The notes below the pieces were generated by a model. That model was not told the DNA's origin. It made no database searches and worked only from the letters and a program-made list of their open reading frames with translations. DNA of 41,351 nt from a virus. Taxonomy: Duplodnaviria; Heunggongvirae; Uroviricota; Caudoviricetes. Of this stretch, positions 115-39,890 are shown one piece after another; position 1 is the first letter of the stretch, and each line of letters starts with the position of its first letter. The stretch lies in IMG/VR virus record IMGVR_UViG_2711768015_000005; one strand, 5' to 3'. Made by a program: the position numbers and the translations under genes.

Positions 115-345
115 ATGGTAGTGTCCGCTATTGCCAGTACACCTCAGCTATTACCTTCTTCAGAGAGCCCCCAGCTACTTCCTGTGACTCTCGATGCAGC
201 TGCCGAACAGCCAGAATCGCTCGCAGAGGACCCGAAAACCCTCAGTATCAGCTGTGAGGTAACGTTCCGGCACGGGACGCTCCGCTTCAATGGCAATGTC
301 AGCGAAAAGCTCCTGACTCTGCTGATACAGGAACTGAAGCGATGA
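115..345 (+). CDS. IS66-family orf1 accessory protein, probably 5'-truncated
   Basis: C-terminus ...GTLRFNGNVSEKLLTLLIQELKR; its stop overlaps the next ORF's start in an ATGA junction (342-345), the usual IS66 orf1-orf2 coupling; too short for a full orf1 and no room for a left IR after the IS3 fragment. Confidence 0.55.
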   Translation: MVVSAIASTPQLLPSSESPQLLPVTLDAAAEQPESLAEDPKTLSISCEVTFRHGTLRFNGNVSEKLLTLLIQELKR

Positions 346-665
346 TCCCGTTACCTTCCGGGATCAAAATTTGGCTGGTTGCCGGTATCACCGATATGAG
401 AAATGGCTTCAACGGCCTGGCTGCGAAAGTACAGACGGCGCTGAAAGACGATCCCATGTCCGGCCATGTTTTCATTTTCCGGGGCCGCAGCGGCAGTCAG
501 GTTAAACTGCTGTGGTCCACCAGTGACGGACTGTGCCTCCTGACCAAACGGCTGGAGCGTGGGCGCTTCGCCTGGCCGTCAGCCCGTGATGGCAAAGTGT
601 TCCTTACACAGGCGCAGCTGGCGATGCTGCTGGAAGGTATCGACTGGCGACATATAACCAGGTGA
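342..665 (+). CDS. tnpB: IS66-family TnpB (orf2)
   Basis: 107 aa MIPLPSGIKIWLVAGITDMRNGFNGLAAKVQ...; characteristic IS66 orf2 N-terminal motif and size. Confidence 0.85.
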   Translation: MIPLPSGIKIWLVAGITDMRNGFNGLAAKVQTALKDDPMSGHVFIFRGRSGSQVKLLWSTSDGLCLLTKRLERGRFAWPSARDGKVFLTQAQLAMLLEGIDWRHITR

Positions 666-5739: not shown

Positions 5740-6008
5740 GTAAAGTCGTACGCATTATTTTCGAATACAAGGAAGATGTTATCTGCAAAAACTCTGATGG
5801 CAGCACGCACAGAGGGGTAAGTCTGGATATACGTTCAACCGGAATAAAGAAGAAAGATAATGGACCCGCCATGATTTTTGGGGTGGTTATGCTGGCAGAA
5901 AGCAGAAACTTCGCAGAGTTTGTGGCAATGAAAGCCAGTGCATTCATGAAAGACAGAGGCATGGCTTCCGGGGTTATTAACGGTAATGAATTTAATCAAC
6001 AGGGGTAA
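5736..6008 (+). CDS. Hypothetical early protein, tandem paralogue 1
   Basis: 90 aa, MSKVVRIIFEY...; SD-like AGAGGA upstream; N-terminus shared with the next ORF. Confidence 0.5.
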   Translation: MSKVVRIIFEYKEDVICKNSDGSTHRGVSLDIRSTGIKKKDNGPAMIFGVVMLAESRNFAEFVAMKASAFMKDRGMASGVINGNEFNQQG

Positions 6009-6012
6009 TTCC

Positions 6013-6306
6013 ATGAGCAAAGTACGCGTTATTTTTGAATTTAATCATGTTTCGCATGACGAAAAGTTGGCAGGCAATGACTGTGTTGAAGTGCATGAAA
6101 AGATTGGAGTGGATGTGAAAACAGAACGTGATACGGATAACAGGCCGACGTCACTCTGTGACGTTTATGCAAGTATTCTCCAGTATCACAGTCCTGCAAT
6201 TATTCAGTTTCTCTCAGCGGAATTTCAGGCATCTGCACAGTCTTTTGGAGCGGATGCCATCATTAAACGCCACCGCGTGCATAAAGCATCAGGCACACTG
6301 CAATAA
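6013..6306 (+). CDS. Hypothetical early protein, tandem paralogue 2
   Basis: 97 aa from ATG 6013, MSKVRVIFEF...; N-terminus shared with the preceding ORF. Confidence 0.5.
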   Translation: MSKVRVIFEFNHVSHDEKLAGNDCVEVHEKIGVDVKTERDTDNRPTSLCDVYASILQYHSPAIIQFLSAEFQASAQSFGADAIIKRHRVHKASGTLQ

Positions 6307-6317
6307 GGAAAAACAAA

Positions 6318-6848
6318 ATGGCTAAACGCGTTACAAAATTAAAGGCCGCAGCCGAGGCGGCACCGCAGACCCGGGAAGAAGTCAGCCGTGATATCCGCAC
6401 CCTGGGAGATATTCAGCGAGAGGCGCTGCGCCTGGAAACGGCGATGAATGACGAAGTGGCAGAAATCACCGCCCGTTATACGCCGCAGATTGAAAATCTT
6501 AAAAAGCAAATCAAAGTGCTTTTTAAAGGGATTCAGGACTGGTGCAAAACCAACCGTGATGAGCTGACGAACGGCGGCAAAACCAAAACAGCCAATCTGA
6601 CCACCGGAACGGTGTCATGGCGGCTGGGAACGCCATCATGCAGCGTCAGCCGTGATGTGGAAGGTGTGATTGAAATGCTGCGCCGTATGGGGCTTGAGCG
6701 TTTCATCCGCACGAAAGAGGAAGTGAACAAGGAAGCCGTCCTGGCGGAGCCGGATGCTGTGAAAGGCATTGCCGGTATCAAGGTGAATAAAGGCGCTGAA
6801 AGTTTTTATGTCGAGCCTTTTGAACAGGACGCCGGACTGAATAAATAA
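6318..6848 (+). CDS. gam: Gam-like host-nuclease inhibitor (Mu Gam, Ku-like DNA end-binding protein)
   Basis: 176 aa; QREALRLETAMNDEVAEIT, NRDELTNGGKTKTANLTTGTVSWR, RFIRTKEEVNKEA, PFEQDAG parallel Mu Gam. Confidence 0.9.
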   Translation: MAKRVTKLKAAAEAAPQTREEVSRDIRTLGDIQREALRLETAMNDEVAEITARYTPQIENLKKQIKVLFKGIQDWCKTNRDELTNGGKTKTANLTTGTVSWRLGTPSCSVSRDVEGVIEMLRRMGLERFIRTKEEVNKEAVLAEPDAVKGIAGIKVNKGAESFYVEPFEQDAGLNK

Positions 6849-6993
6849 CACCGCATTAATCAATTAAATATCACTTCATTTTAATTATGGCGCTCGCGTC
6901 AGGGGACTGCTTGCGCCTGAAAACAGAAAATAAGGGTTAAGAAATATGAAATACGTTTATATCGTCATTAATAATGTGGTGGGGAAATAAATC

Positions 6994-7527
6994 ATGATTG
7001 ATGCAAAAGTGCTTGAAGGGGTTAAAAACTGGCTGTGTATTTATGGCCGCCTGACCTGCGGTGTACTGGCTGAAAAAATGAATATGCCGCCATCCTCCAT
7101 GGTTTATTTTCTGCGTGATGCGGTTGATGCAGGCGTGCTGACGGAATGTAACGGTTTTTATGATATTCCGCGTCCCCGCCCGGTGCAGCCGGTTCGTCGC
7201 AAATGCAGCCAGGAATCTGCGGCTGATGATGTTCAGTGGTGCGGCTTCAGAAAATCCCTGCCATGGATTGAGGGGCATGATATTCCGTCGATGGCGTGGG
7301 AATTTGCTCAGGGCGTTCTGACCTGTGAAACCGTTTATGTGGTGGCTGAAGTTGATGAGCAGGCCATGAAAGAAGGCGTGCCCCAGTTTGTGATGGCGTA
7401 TATCGACATACGCCTGGGCGTCATTATCTGCGGTTTAAGCGGCTGGAATATCACTGAACATGTTCTGCGCTACCTGATTGTTGACCGGACAGCAGCGCCT
7501 GCCGGGATATCTGCGGAGGTGGCGTAA
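6994..7527 (+). CDS. Hypothetical early protein
   Basis: 177 aa ORF, co-directional; no recognised motif. Confidence 0.45.
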   Translation: MIDAKVLEGVKNWLCIYGRLTCGVLAEKMNMPPSSMVYFLRDAVDAGVLTECNGFYDIPRPRPVQPVRRKCSQESAADDVQWCGFRKSLPWIEGHDIPSMAWEFAQGVLTCETVYVVAEVDEQAMKEGVPQFVMAYIDIRLGVIICGLSGWNITEHVLRYLIVDRTAAPAGISAEVA

Positions 7528-8042
7528 TGTTCTTTAAAACATCAAACCCTTCCGCGCTGGCTGCGTGGCAAAAATACCAGCAGGACTGCCAGAAAGTTAA
7601 GGATGAGGCAAAACGCCTTGAGGCCGTGCTGAATGTTGCGTGCCGGTCGGTATTTGTATCCGGTATCAGTGGATTTTACTTTAAGGGACTGCGTTTTACG
7701 GAGGACAAATATCCTTTTCATCGCGACTTATGGCGAAAACCGACTGCGTCGAATGGCTGGAGCTGCACACCGCGCACATCACGTATCCCTAAAACCCTGC
7801 GTGTTGCCTCTGATGAACTGAACAGTCTGTGGCGTGAATATTCGCCCGTCACGTATGCCAGAACCGATGCGCTGTTGTTCTGGTTGGGTATTGATTTCTC
7901 GGCAATCCTGTTTGGCCCTGTGAAGTGGTTCTGCGTTGACGATGTGATTTACCTTCAGTGCGGCGTAAAACCCGCAAAACAGAAAATGACCGAAATACTG
8001 TCTGATGAGTTTTATGCTGCTGAAAAGCGAGTCAGGGGGTGA
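7527..8042 (+). CDS. Hypothetical early protein
   Basis: 171 aa ORF, start overlaps previous stop. Confidence 0.45.
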   Translation: MFFKTSNPSALAAWQKYQQDCQKVKDEAKRLEAVLNVACRSVFVSGISGFYFKGLRFTEDKYPFHRDLWRKPTASNGWSCTPRTSRIPKTLRVASDELNSLWREYSPVTYARTDALLFWLGIDFSAILFGPVKWFCVDDVIYLQCGVKPAKQKMTEILSDEFYAAEKRVRG

Positions 8043-8045
8043 TGC

Positions 8046-8597
8046 ATGATGAAATTACAACCCATGGGACTAAAAGGTCGCGCCCCCGCTCATGTCCGTC
8101 CGTGGACACCTGAAGAAGATGCGCTGCTGATTGCGCTTTATTCATCCACCCCGGTTAAGGATATTGCTGCCAGAATAAAAAGAACTGTCTGGGCTGTATA
8201 TAACCGGACTGGTGTATTGCGCAGTTCATACCCGGAGTTACTGAAATATAAACACCCAAGATTTACACCTGATGAAGATAAGTTTATTCGAAAAAATGCC
8301 AGAACAATGACCTGCCAGCAAATGGGAGAATATCTCGGACGTAATAAAGATTCTGTCAGATGTCGGGCAGGAATGATTGGTGCTGGATTAACAAAGTGCG
8401 GAGAGTTACGCCCCGGCACGCGCATATCTGATGATGATGTACGTCTTATACGTGAGCTGCGTGATTCCGATTACCCACGCCGTCTGTCATTCCGGGAAAT
8501 TGGCGAAAAGTTTGGAATATCTGAACATTCTGCTCACGCAGTTTATTACCGTCGCCGGACTGCCGAGGACGCTGTATTACGGGAGTTAACGCCATGA
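8046..8597 (+). CDS. DNA-binding protein with three tandem Myb/SANT-like helix-turn-helix repeats
   Basis: 183 aa; three ~55-aa repeats each opening with a W/F-T-P-E/D-E-D-x-x-L signature (WTPEEDALLIAL, FTPDEDKFIRKN, ISDDDVRLIREL). Confidence 0.5.
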   Translation: MMKLQPMGLKGRAPAHVRPWTPEEDALLIALYSSTPVKDIAARIKRTVWAVYNRTGVLRSSYPELLKYKHPRFTPDEDKFIRKNARTMTCQQMGEYLGRNKDSVRCRAGMIGAGLTKCGELRPGTRISDDDVRLIRELRDSDYPRRLSFREIGEKFGISEHSAHAVYYRRRTAEDAVLRELTP

Positions 8598-8926
8598 TAA
8601 CGACCTTATTTGTTGAATCAGATGAACCTCTTGTGTGTGCCGCCGGAATGCCGCTCTGTGGCGGAACGCTGACCGGCGTTTATTTCGGGGATTTGCGCGG
8701 TTATCCCTGGCATTCACTGGATGACGCATTTCCGCCTGATATGGAGGCTGTCGTGCTGATTGTTCAGTATGGTGACCAACAGGAACTGCGCATCGGCCAT
8801 ATGGGGTATGAAGGCTTTTTTATTGATGAAGAAACCGGAGCCTGCCTTGAAGATGAGGACGGACAGGTGACGCACTGGTGCCATCTTTCGGCCTTGCCGG
8901 AATTACAGGGGATACATAATGGATGA
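8594..8926 (+). CDS. Hypothetical early protein
   Basis: 110 aa ORF, start overlaps previous stop. Confidence 0.4.
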   Translation: MITTLFVESDEPLVCAAGMPLCGGTLTGVYFGDLRGYPWHSLDDAFPPDMEAVVLIVQYGDQQELRIGHMGYEGFFIDEETGACLEDEDGQVTHWCHLSALPELQGIHNG

Positions 8927-9062
8927 GCAAATTGTTGAATGTCCCACCTGTGGAAATGAGGACCCGGAGTATCTGAAAGAGTGCCCACATTGTGGTGAGA
9001 TAAAATGTAACCACTGCGATATGGGCGACGACACTGCATGTATAAATTGTGAGGATGAATAA
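8919..9062 (+). CDS. Small zinc-ribbon protein (four CxxC pairs)
   Basis: 47-aa ORF absent from the >=60 aa track: MDEQIVECPTCGNEDPEYLKECPHCGEIKCNHCDMGDDTACINCEDE; ATG 8919 overlaps the upstream stop. Confidence 0.45.
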   Translation: MDEQIVECPTCGNEDPEYLKECPHCGEIKCNHCDMGDDTACINCEDE

Positions 9063-9063
9063 T

Positions 9064-9351
9064 ATGGAAAAAGAAATCAAATTTGCGCCTAAATCTATCG
9101 ACGAAGAACTGGCTAAAATCGGCATGCTTGAACGTATGCGGGACATTATCGAATATGCGATAAAAGAAAATCTTGCAGCCAGAGAAGCCCTTTTGATAAT
9201 GGAGCGGGAGATTAACCTGATTAAGGATGCTGTATCTCTGGATAATAAAATAGCCCGCGAGGAATACGTTCGCCGTAGGCTCGGTGTTGATGGTTCAGCA
9301 ATTCTTACATCTGAACATTATGCAAAAATTTTTAATCTTTTTCAGCGGTAA
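9064..9351 (+). CDS. Hypothetical early protein
   Basis: 95 aa from ATG 9064 (MEKEIKF...), directly after the zinc-ribbon ORF stop. Confidence 0.45.
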   Translation: MEKEIKFAPKSIDEELAKIGMLERMRDIIEYAIKENLAAREALLIMEREINLIKDAVSLDNKIAREEYVRRRLGVDGSAILTSEHYAKIFNLFQR

Positions 9352-9571
9352 TCCCCATACAGGCCCGGAGATTGTCGAAATGCCAGTCGGTATTAATATA
9401 TGAGCCATCCTGGATATCTTCTGCATTTTCCGGGGTAGAGTTTTTTTGAGCGAGATTGATAATATGTATTGCCTCCTCACGGGAAATCAGCCCCTTATCG
9501 AACAGGGTTACCATAAGATTTCCAGCCATTGTGAATGCGGCAACATCAAGTGCATTTTTTATATCTGACAT
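9332..9571 (-). CDS. Hypothetical protein encoded antisense to the early operon
   Basis: 79 aa minus-strand ORF with AAGGA SD 7 nt upstream of ATG; convergent 20-bp overlap with the preceding + strand ORF. Confidence 0.45.
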   Translation of the reverse strand: MSDIKNALDVAAFTMAGNLMVTLFDKGLISREEAIHIINLAQKNSTPENAEDIQDGSYINTDWHFDNLRACMGITAEKD

Positions 9572-9599
9572 AGATTTTTCCTTTTATGTTAATTGACAT

Positions 9600-9629
9600 G
9601 GCGGTGCGGTAACACCGCCCATTTTTTAT
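9600..9629 (+). terminator. Rho-independent terminator-like hairpin upstream of gemA
   Basis: GGCGGTG-cggtaa-CACCGCC followed by CATTTTTTAT. Confidence 0.5.
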
Positions 9630-9641
9630 GGAGCCACGATA

Positions 9642-10154
9642 ATGAATCGCGCTTCCCTGATTACCTTAATACATGTCGCAAAACGCGATCTACAGCTTGA
9701 CCATGATACCTATACATCCGCGCTGCTGGCAGCCACCGGCAAATCCAGTTGCCGTGATATGTCACCCGGTGAGTTATCCCGCGTGCTGGATGTTTTCAAA
9801 AAACGCGGTTTTAAAGTGCGTCAGAAGCCGGTTAACCGGGCCTTAAAACCGGGTACGGTGACCGCCAAAATTCGCGCCATCTGGAAAGTGATGCACCGGC
9901 AGGGATTTATCTCTGATGGCGGGGAAACGGCCCTTAACCGCTGGGTGAAATCGCAGACGGCCGCGCAGAACGACGGCGAAGGTGTGGCTAACTGGCAGTG
10001 GCTGGAGCAACAACCCGCGCTGGCCTCTGATGTGCTGGAGCGTCTCAAACGCTGGCACCGCCGCAAAATGCTGGCAGCCCTGGATATGTCGGAACGTGCA
10101 GTGATGAGTTATGAGCGTGTTTGCAGGCTGTATGAAAAATCATTCCCCCGTTAA
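9642..10154 (+). CDS. gemA: GemA-like protein (Mu gp16, DUF1018 family)
   Basis: 170 aa; N-terminus MNRASLITLIHVAKRDLQLDHDTYTSALLAATGKSSC parallels Mu GemA. Confidence 0.75.
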   Translation: MNRASLITLIHVAKRDLQLDHDTYTSALLAATGKSSCRDMSPGELSRVLDVFKKRGFKVRQKPVNRALKPGTVTAKIRAIWKVMHRQGFISDGGETALNRWVKSQTAAQNDGEGVANWQWLEQQPALASDVLERLKRWHRRKMLAALDMSERAVMSYERVCRLYEKSFPR

Positions 10155-10158
10155 CCCC

Positions 10159-10190
10159 AAATCCCGCCACAGCGCGGGATTTTTATTTTA
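10159..10190 (+). terminator. Rho-independent terminator between gemA and the Mor/C-family gene
   Basis: ATCCCGC-cacag-GCGGGAT followed by TTTTATTTTA. Confidence 0.6.
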
Positions 10191-10224
10191 AACTTGCCCT
10201 GTGTAATGATGACCGGAGGCGGGT

Positions 10225-10647
10225 ATGGCTGAAACACAGATGAGCATGTTTGGTGACAGCGAACAGCTGCACGCGCTGATTGACCGTCTGGATGATATTC
10301 CTGATGATGAGCTGAAAAAGAACTGGCCCGGCACGCTGCGGGACCTGGTTGATGTGATCAGTGCTGAACTGCACCGTCAGGGGATTGAACCTGCTCAGGC
10401 GGGAATGCTTGCCCGTAAGGTTGCAGCCGCACAGGCCGGGTACATGGGCGGGCGTGGTTATTATCTCCCGGTCGGTGAATCCCTTTTCACCGAACTGCGC
10501 AATAATGAAATTTTTTCCCGCTGGAGCCAGGGCGAAAAAATTGAAACCCTGCGCCGCCACTACCAGATGTCAGAGACGCAGATTTACTCCGTTATCCGCA
10601 ACCAGCGTCGCCTGCATCAGGAACGCACGCAGCCACGGCTTTTCTGA
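10225..10647 (+). CDS. mor: Mor/C-family transcriptional activator
   Basis: 140 aa; C-terminal HTH region YYLPVGESLFTELRNNEIFSRWSQGEKIETLRRHYQMSETQIYSVIRNQRR resembles Mu Mor/C; it is the only family member in the window and sits directly before the lysis gene. Confidence 0.8.
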   Translation: MAETQMSMFGDSEQLHALIDRLDDIPDDELKKNWPGTLRDLVDVISAELHRQGIEPAQAGMLARKVAAAQAGYMGGRGYYLPVGESLFTELRNNEIFSRWSQGEKIETLRRHYQMSETQIYSVIRNQRRLHQERTQPRLF

Positions 10648-10718
10648 TATTCCGCAAATCCTGCCCCCTTTTCCTCACGGTTACGCTGACTCAGAGAACA
10701 CCATGAGACAGCGTAACA

Positions 10719-11219
10719 ATGCCAAAACTCCCCGCACCCCTGCGTAAAAAGCTGATTGCCCTTGTTCTGGCCGGAGCCGGGACGTTCACCATTGCCACGC
10801 ACTACACCGGCTACTGGGAAGGGAAAGAAAACACCACGTACATTGATCCCACCGGCACCCCCACCATCTGTTACGGCCATACCGGCCCGGATGTGAAACC
10901 GGGGATGACAAAAACTGATGAAGAGTGTCTGGAGCTGCTGGAAAAGGACATGAAATGGGCCTTTGCGGCTATCGATCGTCATGTTCAGGTGCCGCTTACC
11001 CGTGGTCAGACGGTGGCGCTGGCCTCCTGGATTTTCTGGGCCGGTGAAACGAACTTTCGCAACTCCACGCTCCTGCGCCTTATCAATGCCGGGCAGATGC
11101 CCGCGTCCTGTAAGCAGTATATCCGCTGGATTTATTCAAAGGGGGTAAAACTCCCCGGTCTTGAGGCCCGCCGTTCGGCGGATGAATGGTTATGTCGTTA
11201 CGATTTGCCGAAAGTCTGA
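10719..11219 (+). CDS. lys: Endolysin, phage lysozyme with N-terminal signal-arrest-release (SAR) segment
   Basis: 166 aa; hydrophobic LIALVLAGAGTFTIA followed by a lysozyme-type region YWEGKENTTYIDPTGTPTICYGHTG. Confidence 0.8.
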   Translation: MPKLPAPLRKKLIALVLAGAGTFTIATHYTGYWEGKENTTYIDPTGTPTICYGHTGPDVKPGMTKTDEECLELLEKDMKWAFAAIDRHVQVPLTRGQTVALASWIFWAGETNFRNSTLLRLINAGQMPASCKQYIRWIYSKGVKLPGLEARRSADEWLCRYDLPKV

Positions 11220-34218: not shown

Positions 34219-34847
34219 ATGCTGATTGGGTATATCAGGGTGTCAACAAATGACCAGAATACGGCGCTACAAAGAAATGNNNNNNNNNNNNNNNNNNNNN
34301 NNNNNNNNNNNNNNNNNNNNNNNNNNNNNNNNNNNNNNNNNNNNNNNNNNNNNNNNNGCTGTTTTTCGAAGACAGAATAAGCGGTAAGACAAGGGAGCGT
34401 CCCGGACTTAAACGCGCATTAAAGCGACTCCGGCCAGGGGATACCCTGCTGGTCTGGAAACTGGATCGCCTTGGACGCAGTATGCAGCACCTTGTCCTTT
34501 TAACAGAAGAACTCCGGCAACGCGGCGTTAACTTCCGCAGCATTACGGACAATATTGATACATCCACTCCCATGGGACGTTTCTTTTTCCATATAATGGG
34601 CGCGCTGGCGGAAATGGAGCGGGAACTCATTATTGAACGTACACGCGCGGGTCTTGCTGCTGCCCGTGCTCAGGGGCGTCATGGCGGCAGACCTCAGAAA
34701 CTGACAGAGAAAGAGCGGGAGCAAATCGCCCGTTTGCTGGCTAATGGCGAGTCCCGTAAACAAATCGCACTGATATTTGATATTGGCCTTTCCACCCTTT
34801 ATCGTTATTTTCCTGCCTCACCAGCTCCGTCACCAAAAGTACCGTGA
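34219..34847 (+). CDS. gin: Gin/Hin/Pin/Cin-family serine DNA invertase, interrupted by an assembly gap (Ns at 34280-34357)
   Basis: MLIGYIRVSTNDQNTALQRN...[gap]...LFFEDRISGKTRERPGLKRALKRLRPGDTLLVWKLDRLGRSMQHL...GRFFFHIMGALAEMERELIIERT closely parallels Mu Gin; the N-run changes the reading frame, so its length is not the real gap. Confidence 0.9.
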
Positions 34848-39371: not shown

Positions 39372-39890
39372 CCATGCTGTAAATCTCTTTATCCTGGTTG
39401 TCACAGAATAAGCCCGGTAAAATACGGGCTTATGAACGACATCTCTTCTGACGACATCTTCCTGCTGAAACAGCGCCTTGCCGAACGTCAGTTGAAAACG
39501 AAACCGCTGCTGAAATCCCTGGAAAGCTGGCTGCGTGAAAAGATGAAAACCCTGTCGCGACACTCAGAACTGGCGAAAGCGTTCGCATACGCCCTGAACC
39601 AGTGGCCGGCGCTGACGTACTATGCAGATGATGGCTGGGCTGAGGCGGACAATAACATCGCTGAAAATGCGTTGCGGATGGTCAGTCTGGGCCGCAAAAA
39701 CTACCTGTTCTTCGGTTCGGATCATGGAGGAGAGCGGGGAGCGCTGCTGTACAGCCTGATCGGGACGTGCAAACTGAACGGAGTGGAGCCAGAAAGCTAC
39801 CTCCGCTATGTCCTTGACGTCATAGCCGACTGGCCGATAAACCGGGTCGGCGAACTGCTCCCCTGGCGCGTAGCACTGCCGACTGAATAA
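39372..39890 (+). pseudogene. tnpC: 3' fragment of IS66-family transposase tnpC (C-terminal ~150-170 aa only)
   Basis: ...WPALTYYADDGWAEADNNIAENALRMVSLGRKNYLFFGSDHGGERGALLYSLIGTCKLNGVEPESYLRYVLDVIADWPINRVGELLPWR matches the conserved IS66 TnpC C-terminus; in-frame stop at 39369-39371 and no N-terminal region. Confidence 0.85.

Follow-up and report, generated by a model that had tools for sequence, protein, structure and literature searches.

What kind of protein is encoded at positions 8046–8597 of the virus record IMGVR_UViG_2711768015_000005, and what might it do for the phage that carries it? The window (the whole 41,351-nucleotide (nt) stretch that was analysed) is a Mu-like Escherichia coli prophage, and the target gene is 100% identical to an annotated coding sequence (CDS) of E. 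coli strain 600029 (NZ_CM128582.1). Its product, WP_000977059.1, is named “SANT/Myb-like DNA-binding domain-containing protein” in RefSeq, and near homologs are named “AsnC family protein”. An earlier note on this DNA had described the 183-residue product as three tandem repeats reminiscent of a Myb-type three-repeat DNA-binding domain. The fold, repeat structure, homology, genomic context and evolutionary pattern of the protein are reported here as observed, and its DNA binding, targets and effect are inferred. We consider it fairly probable that the gene encodes a small basic duplex-DNA-binding protein of the D5-like family (PHROG 323), which contains three tandem helix-turn-helix (HTH) modules and modulates early transcription or replication.

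The protein contains three modules (R1, R2 and R3) that recur with a period of 53–54 residues. R1 and R2 open with the signatures W20-TPEEDALL and F74-TPDEDKFI, respectively, and R3 opens with the looser I127-SDDDVRLI. The modules were compared with each other by hhalign on profiles from 23 diverse orthologs (50% clustering), and the scores were set against 100 column-shuffled controls. The R1–R2 alignment has a probability of 98.9% and a score of 70.8. R2 and R3 align with a probability of 93.4% (score 33.2) over 40 columns, in register across three helices, and R1 and R3 align with a probability of 85.8% (score 27.7) in the HTH core only. The highest score among the controls was 16, and none of the 100 reached any observed repeat score. 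A single-sequence Smith–Waterman repeat test was weak, and the profile links to R3 were weak with a narrower alignment. Because the profile scores exceed those of all shuffles, the three-repeat description of the earlier note is confirmed, with R3 as a clearly divergent copy. The note had also assigned a W/F-T-P signature to each repeat, which holds for R1 and R2 but not for R3.

An AlphaFold2 model built with 19 homologs bears out the same architecture (predicted local distance difference test (pLDDT) 84.3). Three consecutive three-helix bundles form modules of ~53 residues (helices 22–31, 37–43 and 48–59 in R1; 75–84, 90–97 and 101–110 in R2; 129–140, 149–156 and 160–169 in R3), and a C-terminal helix follows at residues 173–181. 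The structure prediction that the earlier note had proposed thus returned HTH-type bundles rather than an unrelated fold. The HTH geometry and a G-R-[ST] turn are kept in all three modules. How the bundles are oriented to each other is left undefined by the predicted template modelling score (pTM), which is only 0.55. The N-terminal tail is predicted to be disordered but is conserved at L4, P6, G11 and H16 in the ortholog alignment (A1), and it may act as a short linear motif or a DNA-contacting arm. Its pattern M-x-L-x-P-M-G-x-P-G-K-C-P-A-H (residues 1–16, 8046–8093) is common to Mu-like and P2-like homologs at ~40% identity.

Profile searches place the protein in PHROG 323 (“transcriptional regulator, D5-like”). 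Residues 2–182 match profile positions 80–256 of 319 with an E value of 5.3e-53; the same profile matches T5 D5 (1.2e-71), the P2-like homolog (5.6e-41), Mu gp9 (5.2e-29) and phiEco32 gp99 (2.6e-23). D5 (T5.118, YP_006946.1), the founder of the family, aligns with the window protein across the three modules (hhalign 97.4%, 162 columns) and is the sole hmmsearch match among the T5 open reading frames (ORFs) in 30 kb (50.6 bits, E 8e-13). Its Pfam pattern is that of the window protein, with a weak Myb match on the WTPE module and a Sigma70_r4_2 match on the last module. In biochemical work from 1979–83, D5 reportedly binds duplex DNA cooperatively, with no known sequence specificity. Its annotation is that of a DNA-binding protein needed for DNA replication and late transcription, with a part in shutoff; the primary paper is McCorquodale et al. 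1979 (J Virol 29:322), as cited in PMC12630848. A 2026 preprint describes D5 as a 26-kDa monomer whose HTH is predicted to bind DNA (PMC13405049). In that study, the protein alone was toxic to E. coli, and it activated the type IX retron-Kva2, apparently through HTH-mediated binding of the retron's msDNA.

Shorter and longer relatives share the same unit. Mu gp9 (Mup09, formerly E8; 99 amino acids (aa); L115 1483–1779) aligns to R2 and R3 with 29% identity (hhalign 98.3%), and the window phage has no gp9 homolog in the slot upstream of gam. The phiEco32 gp99 protein is a two-module R1–R2 version. An exhaustive profile search collected 11,538 cluster representatives, including many long bacterial proteins with 4–10 tandem R1–R2 units, and one multi-repeat relative scores above the Pfam thresholds of both Myb and GcrA. 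The BFVD structure library contains many phage multi-HTH proteins of a like kind that are uncharacterised, and a scan of genome contigs yielded distant multi-repeat relatives alone (Sphingomonads, Verrucomicrobia and others), none of them an ortholog. Two helicases also carry the Myb-like repeat: T5.108 (“replication origin binding”, L114 4546–7332) is annotated with SANT/Myb and helicase domains, and the metagenomic protein P0031 has an N-terminal helicase followed by nine tandem Myb-like repeats. The repeat therefore recurs in phage replication enzymes as a module that targets them to DNA.

The best match in a profile search of the Protein Data Bank (PDB) was c-Myb R2R3 (1h88, E 3.5e-6), which aligns to residues 19–109 with both repeats in register. 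Together with the predicted helices, this alignment reveals Myb-type tandem repeats of ~50 residues and three helices with Myb spacing. In Pfam, every match of the window protein fell below the gathering score, including Myb/SANT PF00249 (19.7 versus 24.4 bits) and PF13921 (16.5 versus 22.9 bits). A Myb match at E ≤ 0.01 was obtained for 11–12 of the 23 orthologs, and the R1 consensus matched Myb_DNA-binding with 25.5 bits across a stretch of 13 residues only. Among the three spaced tryptophans of Myb, only the first position is kept (W20 in R1; F74 or W in R2), and the second and third are aliphatic. The R3 consensus has no Myb match, and its best Pfam matches are Sigma70_r4 (21.5 bits), HTH_23 and an AsnC-type HTH; the helix 2-turn-helix 3 segments of R1 and R2 score equally well as sigma-70 region 4. 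The profile search suggested by the earlier note therefore divides, with c-Myb R2R3 recovered from the PDB and the Pfam Myb match below its gathering score. Three HTH-type modules with Myb-like R1 and R2 remain of the proposed Myb-type three-repeat domain. The likeness to eukaryotic R1R2R3 Myb is only an analogy, because the matches are sub-threshold, one of three tryptophans is kept and R3 is non-Myb. Membership in two other families was rejected. For AsnC/Lrp, R3 has a sub-threshold HTH_AsnC-type match (18.8 bits), no RAM domain was detected in the protein and the model is all-helical; the name “AsnC family” is wrong because the RAM domain is missing. For the sigma-70 family, the region-4-like matches are sub-threshold only and region 2 is absent. 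An NCBIfam search of the window protein gave nothing useful, and no paper connecting Myb-like proteins with Mu-like prophages was found in the literature.

In the favoured explanation, the gene would be expressed as part of the Mu-like early operon, as its position and overlapping stop and start codons suggest. The third helix of each module would insert into the major groove, with backbone or minor-groove contacts made by the N-terminal tail, which is basic, and by the conserved K-x-G linker. The predicted HTH fold and the basic character of the whole protein lend DNA binding indirect support. The D5-like protein is probably monomeric, and one molecule would span about two helical turns. With T5 D5 as the model, DNA binding would modulate transcription and/or replication in early lytic development.

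The evolutionary pattern bears on what the modules recognise. E. coli carries two allele classes, with at least 96% (class A) and about 72–75% (class B) aa identity to the window protein. The ratio of nonsynonymous to synonymous substitution rates (dN/dS) between the classes is 0.23–0.30, which indicates purifying selection overall. Helix 3 is more variable than helices 1 and 2 (entropy 1.74 versus 0.89 bits, p 2e-5), and the values for helices 1, 2 and 3 of R3 are 0.49, 0.22 and 1.98 bits, respectively. The pN/pS ratio between classes is 0.73 in helix 3 and 0.19 in helices 1 and 2, and replacements are concentrated in helix 3 of R2 and R3 (Fisher p 0.005). Helix 3 of R1 has 8–9 nonsynonymous and 1–2 synonymous changes. 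Within classes, helix 3 is conserved in class A (pN/pS 0.07) but not in the heterogeneous class B (0.59). A claim of positive selection was rejected: helix 3 of R1 is the only segment with pN/pS above 1, and its 8–9 versus 1–2 changes are too few. The most conserved elements are R3 helices 1 and 2, the K-x-G linker and the disordered N-terminal tail. Because the helix-3 segments are the main sites of aa replacement between alleles, the alignments suggest that they carry recognition specificity, for a DNA sequence or for a partner.

Alternatively, the protein could be a sequence-specific transcription factor in the strict Myb sense: R1–R2, aided by R3, would read a defined 12–20-bp operator in the phage or the host and repress or activate particular promoters, and the allele classes would be different operator specificities. 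The register of R1–R2 with c-Myb R2R3, the constraint on helix 3 within class A and its replacement between classes, the excess of nonsynonymous changes in R1 helix 3 and the PHROG and RefSeq labels as transcriptional regulators are consistent with this alternative, which we regard as possible but doubtful. The DNA around the gene argues against it. No non-coding DNA co-varies beside the allelic block, whose flanks are 93–100% identical between classes. A search of 7400–9700 for tandem or inverted DNA repeats and candidate operators found no repeated candidate, only short pairs at chance level, and no DNA-level repeat inside the gene. Promoter and terminator scans of 6000–10800 remained at the shuffle background around the target gene. 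The cooperative duplex binding reported for D5, with no known sequence specificity, also speaks against a strict Myb-type factor.

In another alternative, the protein would be a host-takeover factor that uses the HTH scaffold mainly for protein contacts, for example with R3 mimicking sigma region 4 or the N-terminal tail binding a host protein such as RNA polymerase or a replication factor, and with DNA binding secondary. The most conserved parts are indeed helices 1 and 2 of R3 (DDDVRLIRELRD and FREIGEKF) and the tail, not the putative recognition helices; Sigma70_r4 matches were obtained for 16 of the 23 orthologs, and the toxicity of D5 would also fit. This possibility appears unlikely, as the protein is basic overall (isoelectric point (pI) 9.9), HTH geometry and G-R-[ST] turn are retained in every module, and no known anti-sigma or appropriator protein was matched in the Pfam, NCBIfam and PADLOC searches.

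The gene recurs in other temperate phages. As to the survey of other Mu-like phages that the earlier note had suggested, full-length three-module orthologs are found in Mu-like prophages with conserved synteny (e.g. L042 and L054, with 59% and 39% identity). Homologs of 38–47% identity are located in P2-like (Peduoviridae) prophages of Salmonella and Citrobacter, in the early operon 5′ of replication gene A (gpA). An early position near replication functions is common to the Mu-like phages (gam–gemA/mor), the P2-like phages (5′ of gpA) and T5, where D5 lies between ligase and the D6 helicase. Because Mu has a two-module version elsewhere and a homolog recurs in the P2-like early replication operon, the gene is best seen as a modular accessory and not as a core gene, and it is exchanged as such between Mu-like and P2-like temperate phages. 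It is carried by 200 of 5,426 complete E. coli genomes.

In 23 of the 24 P2-like loci (L044–L064, L107–L110), a D12 adenine methyltransferase gene lies upstream and the homolog 0.9–1.6 kb downstream, often with DUF4406 between them; these methyltransferases form two lineages with 49–100% identity. Eight P2-like loci contain a C5 methyltransferase gene directly downstream of the homolog, with overlapping stop and start codons. In Omegavirus mycobacteriophages, the R1–R2 unit is found within genes annotated as DNA methylase or HNH endonuclease. The homolog of Citrobacter phage Shae_phiSM has no neighbouring methylase, and no methyltransferase is adjacent to the target gene in the window phage, where Com and Mom are about 30 kb off. 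The protein might work with phage DNA methyltransferases as their DNA-binding partner, their regulator or their reader, much as GcrA reads N6-methyladenine (m6A)-marked promoters or as HTH targeting domains are fused to methylases. Such a role would accommodate the D12 and C5 linkages, the Omegavirus genes and the multi-repeat relative above the Pfam GcrA threshold, but it is improbable given the Mu-like window and Shae_phiSM loci, the relatedness of the P2-like loci, whose linkage may thus be inherited synteny, and the window protein itself, for which membership in GcrA (PF07750) was rejected with no Pfam match and no C-terminal sigma-70-interacting domain.

Several points nevertheless weigh against a D5-like duplex-DNA-binding protein that modulates early transcription or replication. 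D5 is only a remote relative (~25% identity) and lacks the conserved N-terminal tail, the KCGD linker and the FREIGEKF helix of the window protein. A function known from a virulent phage may not carry over to a temperate transposable one, whose late switch is already run by Mor and C. The conserved, exposed helices 1 and 2 of R3 and the disordered tail could make protein contacts as important as DNA binding. The fast evolution of helix 3 is compatible with relaxed constraint as well, with ratios below 1 except in R1, where counts are small. A Foldseek search of the whole model against the PDB did not reach significance (best E 0.045), as the low pTM leaves the orientation of the domains undefined.

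The diversification of helix 3 could also reflect conflict. The retron apparently senses D5 through its HTH and the classes differ almost only in helix 3 of each module, and the allele classes might therefore represent variants that escape host sensors, or changes of DNA specificity analogous to immunity types. This reading is speculative and on present evidence rather unlikely; if true, the alleles would form a natural and tractable set in which to study the recognition of phage DNA-binding proteins by defence systems.

The target gene lies between gam and gemA/mor in the semi-essential early region, 3′ of homologs of Mu gp11 (Pfam Gp11_C) and gp12. By the annotation of strain 600029, the prophage encodes a repressor, a Ner-like HTH protein, Mu transposase, a MuB-like ATPase, Gam, gp16/GemA, Mor, and lysis and morphogenesis proteins, with Com and Mom at its far end. 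The stop codon of the upstream gene (TGA, 8040–8042) ends 3 nt before the target start, and the target stop codon shares ATGA (8594–8597) with the start codon of the gene that follows. The earlier note had regarded this as an early accessory region where host-takeover and anti-defence functions are typical. The early, semi-essential position agrees with that description; no link to anti-defence emerged, as PADLOC models of defence and anti-defence systems yielded no family at E ≤ 0.1 for the window protein and three neighbouring proteins. A minus-strand ORF at 8138–8425 is judged spurious, because the substitution pattern fits the plus frame. The positions of the gene and its elements are listed below.

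Features of the target gene and its product, with positions in the window
Feature	Position	Strand	Basis
Shine–Dalgarno-like AGGGGG, 6 nt 5′ of ATG 8046 and 9 nt 5′ of second ATG 8049	8034..8039	+	Direct sequence reading
CDS, D5-like three-module HTH protein, 183 aa	8046..8597	+	ORF list; identical to WP_000977059.1
N-terminal tail, residues 1–19 (MMKLQPMGLKGRAPAHVRP); basic, 4 K/R, no D/E	8046..8102	+	pLDDT <50 for residues 1–15
Module R1, residues 20–62 (W20-TPEEDALL...); Myb-like	8103..8231	+	AlphaFold2; alignment to c-Myb R2
Allelic mosaic block, 63–82% DNA identity in otherwise 93–100% identical Mu-like backbones	8180..8600	+	100-nt profiles versus L021, L026, L027
R1 putative recognition helix	8187–8222	+	AlphaFold2
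Module R2, residues 74–113 (F74-TPDEDKFI...); Myb-like or sigma-r4-like	8265..8384	+	AlphaFold2; hhalign to R1; c-Myb R3 alignment
R2 putative recognition helix	8346–8375	+	AlphaFold2
R2–R3 linker, residues 114–126; invariant K117-x-G119 (KCGE/D) motif, T125	8385..8423	+	Ortholog alignments A1, A2
Module R3, residues 127–171 (ISDDDVRLIRELRD...FREIGEKF...); divergent, resembles sigma-70 region 4	8424..8558	+	AlphaFold2; hhalign to R2; Pfam on consensus
R3 variable helix 3, residues 160–169	8523–8552	+	AlphaFold2; entropy
C-terminal helix, residues 172–183 (TAEDAVLRELTP); conserved R-x-T-A-x-D-x-x-x-R-E-x-L-P	8559..8594	+	AlphaFold2 (helix 173–181); alignments

A copy of the word CCGCAAA, which the earlier note had placed 68 bp upstream of the start, is present at 7972–7978. 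The window contains 21 copies versus about 10–13.5 expected, and the word ranks 17th among 7-mers (z 3.5). Its copies in the window share no common flanking consensus, and its excess on the plus strand is expected because nearly all genes are on that strand. Given its rank and the lack of a flanking consensus, CCGCAAA is not a distinctive site; it was rejected as a site tied to the target gene and is one of many mildly over-represented 7-mers without an extended consensus.

Other features were observed elsewhere in the prophage. Terminator-like GC-rich hairpins with T runs at 9600–9619 and 10159–10182 (plus strand) stand directly before and after gemA, within a region usually drawn as a single early transcript. 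A 47-aa ORF at 8919–9062 (plus strand) contains two CxxC pairs and matches PHROG 5584 (E 3e-26), and strain 600029 has no RefSeq CDS there. A 79-aa ORF at 9332–9571 (minus strand) is located in the early operon at the Mu gp15 position, on the opposite strand and without a Pfam match. At the left, an IS66 Orf2/TnpB gene (342–662, plus strand; Pfam PF05717, E 1e-37) adjoins the Mu-like left end (about 663–830), which contains three CATTTGATACCGA-like copies. Past the right end, 39432–39890 (plus strand) encodes an apparent C-terminal part of the IS66 TnpC transposase. The prophage is therefore in or beside an IS66 element here; the identical prophage of strain 600029 interrupts sgrR instead. A run of 78 N (masked or unresolved) occupies 34280–34357 in the tail-fibre and invertible-segment part of the prophage.

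These results give the protein a defined three-module architecture and a defined family, which includes T5 D5 and Mu gp9, in place of two database names that are vague or wrong (“SANT/Myb-like domain-containing protein” and “AsnC family protein”). The family is common to transposable (Mu-like) and P2-like temperate phages of enterobacteria. The uncharacterised Mu early gene gp9/E8 and the larger relatives are now tied to D5, the only biochemically studied member and one recently reported to trigger a retron, and three short helices are flagged as variable elements that probably bear specificity. The protein is already in public databases and is of a real but fairly ordinary phage DNA-binding kind, with Myb as an analogy rather than a family. 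The results are of use for annotation and experiment design and overturn nothing; the helix-3 allele series and the report of D5 as a retron trigger lend some experimental appeal.

The window protein resembles eukaryotic Myb R2R3 (c-Myb, 1h88/1mse) and SANT domains in the W-T-x-E-E-D start, the three-helix repeats of ~50 residues and the spacing of R1–R2, but its helix 2-turn-helix 3 resembles the bacterial sigma-r4/LuxR-type HTH. The GcrA DNA-binding domain (Caulobacter, 5yiu) is a single module, in contrast to the three modules here. Other multi-HTH binders, namely the Tc3 transposase bipartite domain (1u78), the Sulfolobus CRISPR-repeat-binding protein (2lvs) and the DUX4 double homeodomain, were the top Foldseek matches (probability 0.75–0.93, E >0.04) and likewise have tandem HTHs with short basic linkers; this likeness is architectural only, because the E values are not significant and the sequences are unrelated. 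Prokaryotic tandem “WTxEED...IAxxLGRT” repeat proteins share the R1–R2-type unit. Mu gp9 belongs to PHROG 323 and to the semi-essential early region of a transposable phage, as does the window gene, but it has two modules, lacks R1 and the N-terminal tail and has a shorter R2–R3 linker, and its slot is just 5′ of gam, whereas the window gene follows the gp12 homolog. T5 D5 differs in its length (255 aa), its extra N-terminal module and its Ala/Lys-rich tail; it comes from a virulent phage and is essential for replication and late transcription, whereas the Mu family as a whole can do without the window gene. D5 is an early-expressed phage gene beside replication genes, and its product is a small monomeric HTH protein, traits that the window gene and its product probably share.
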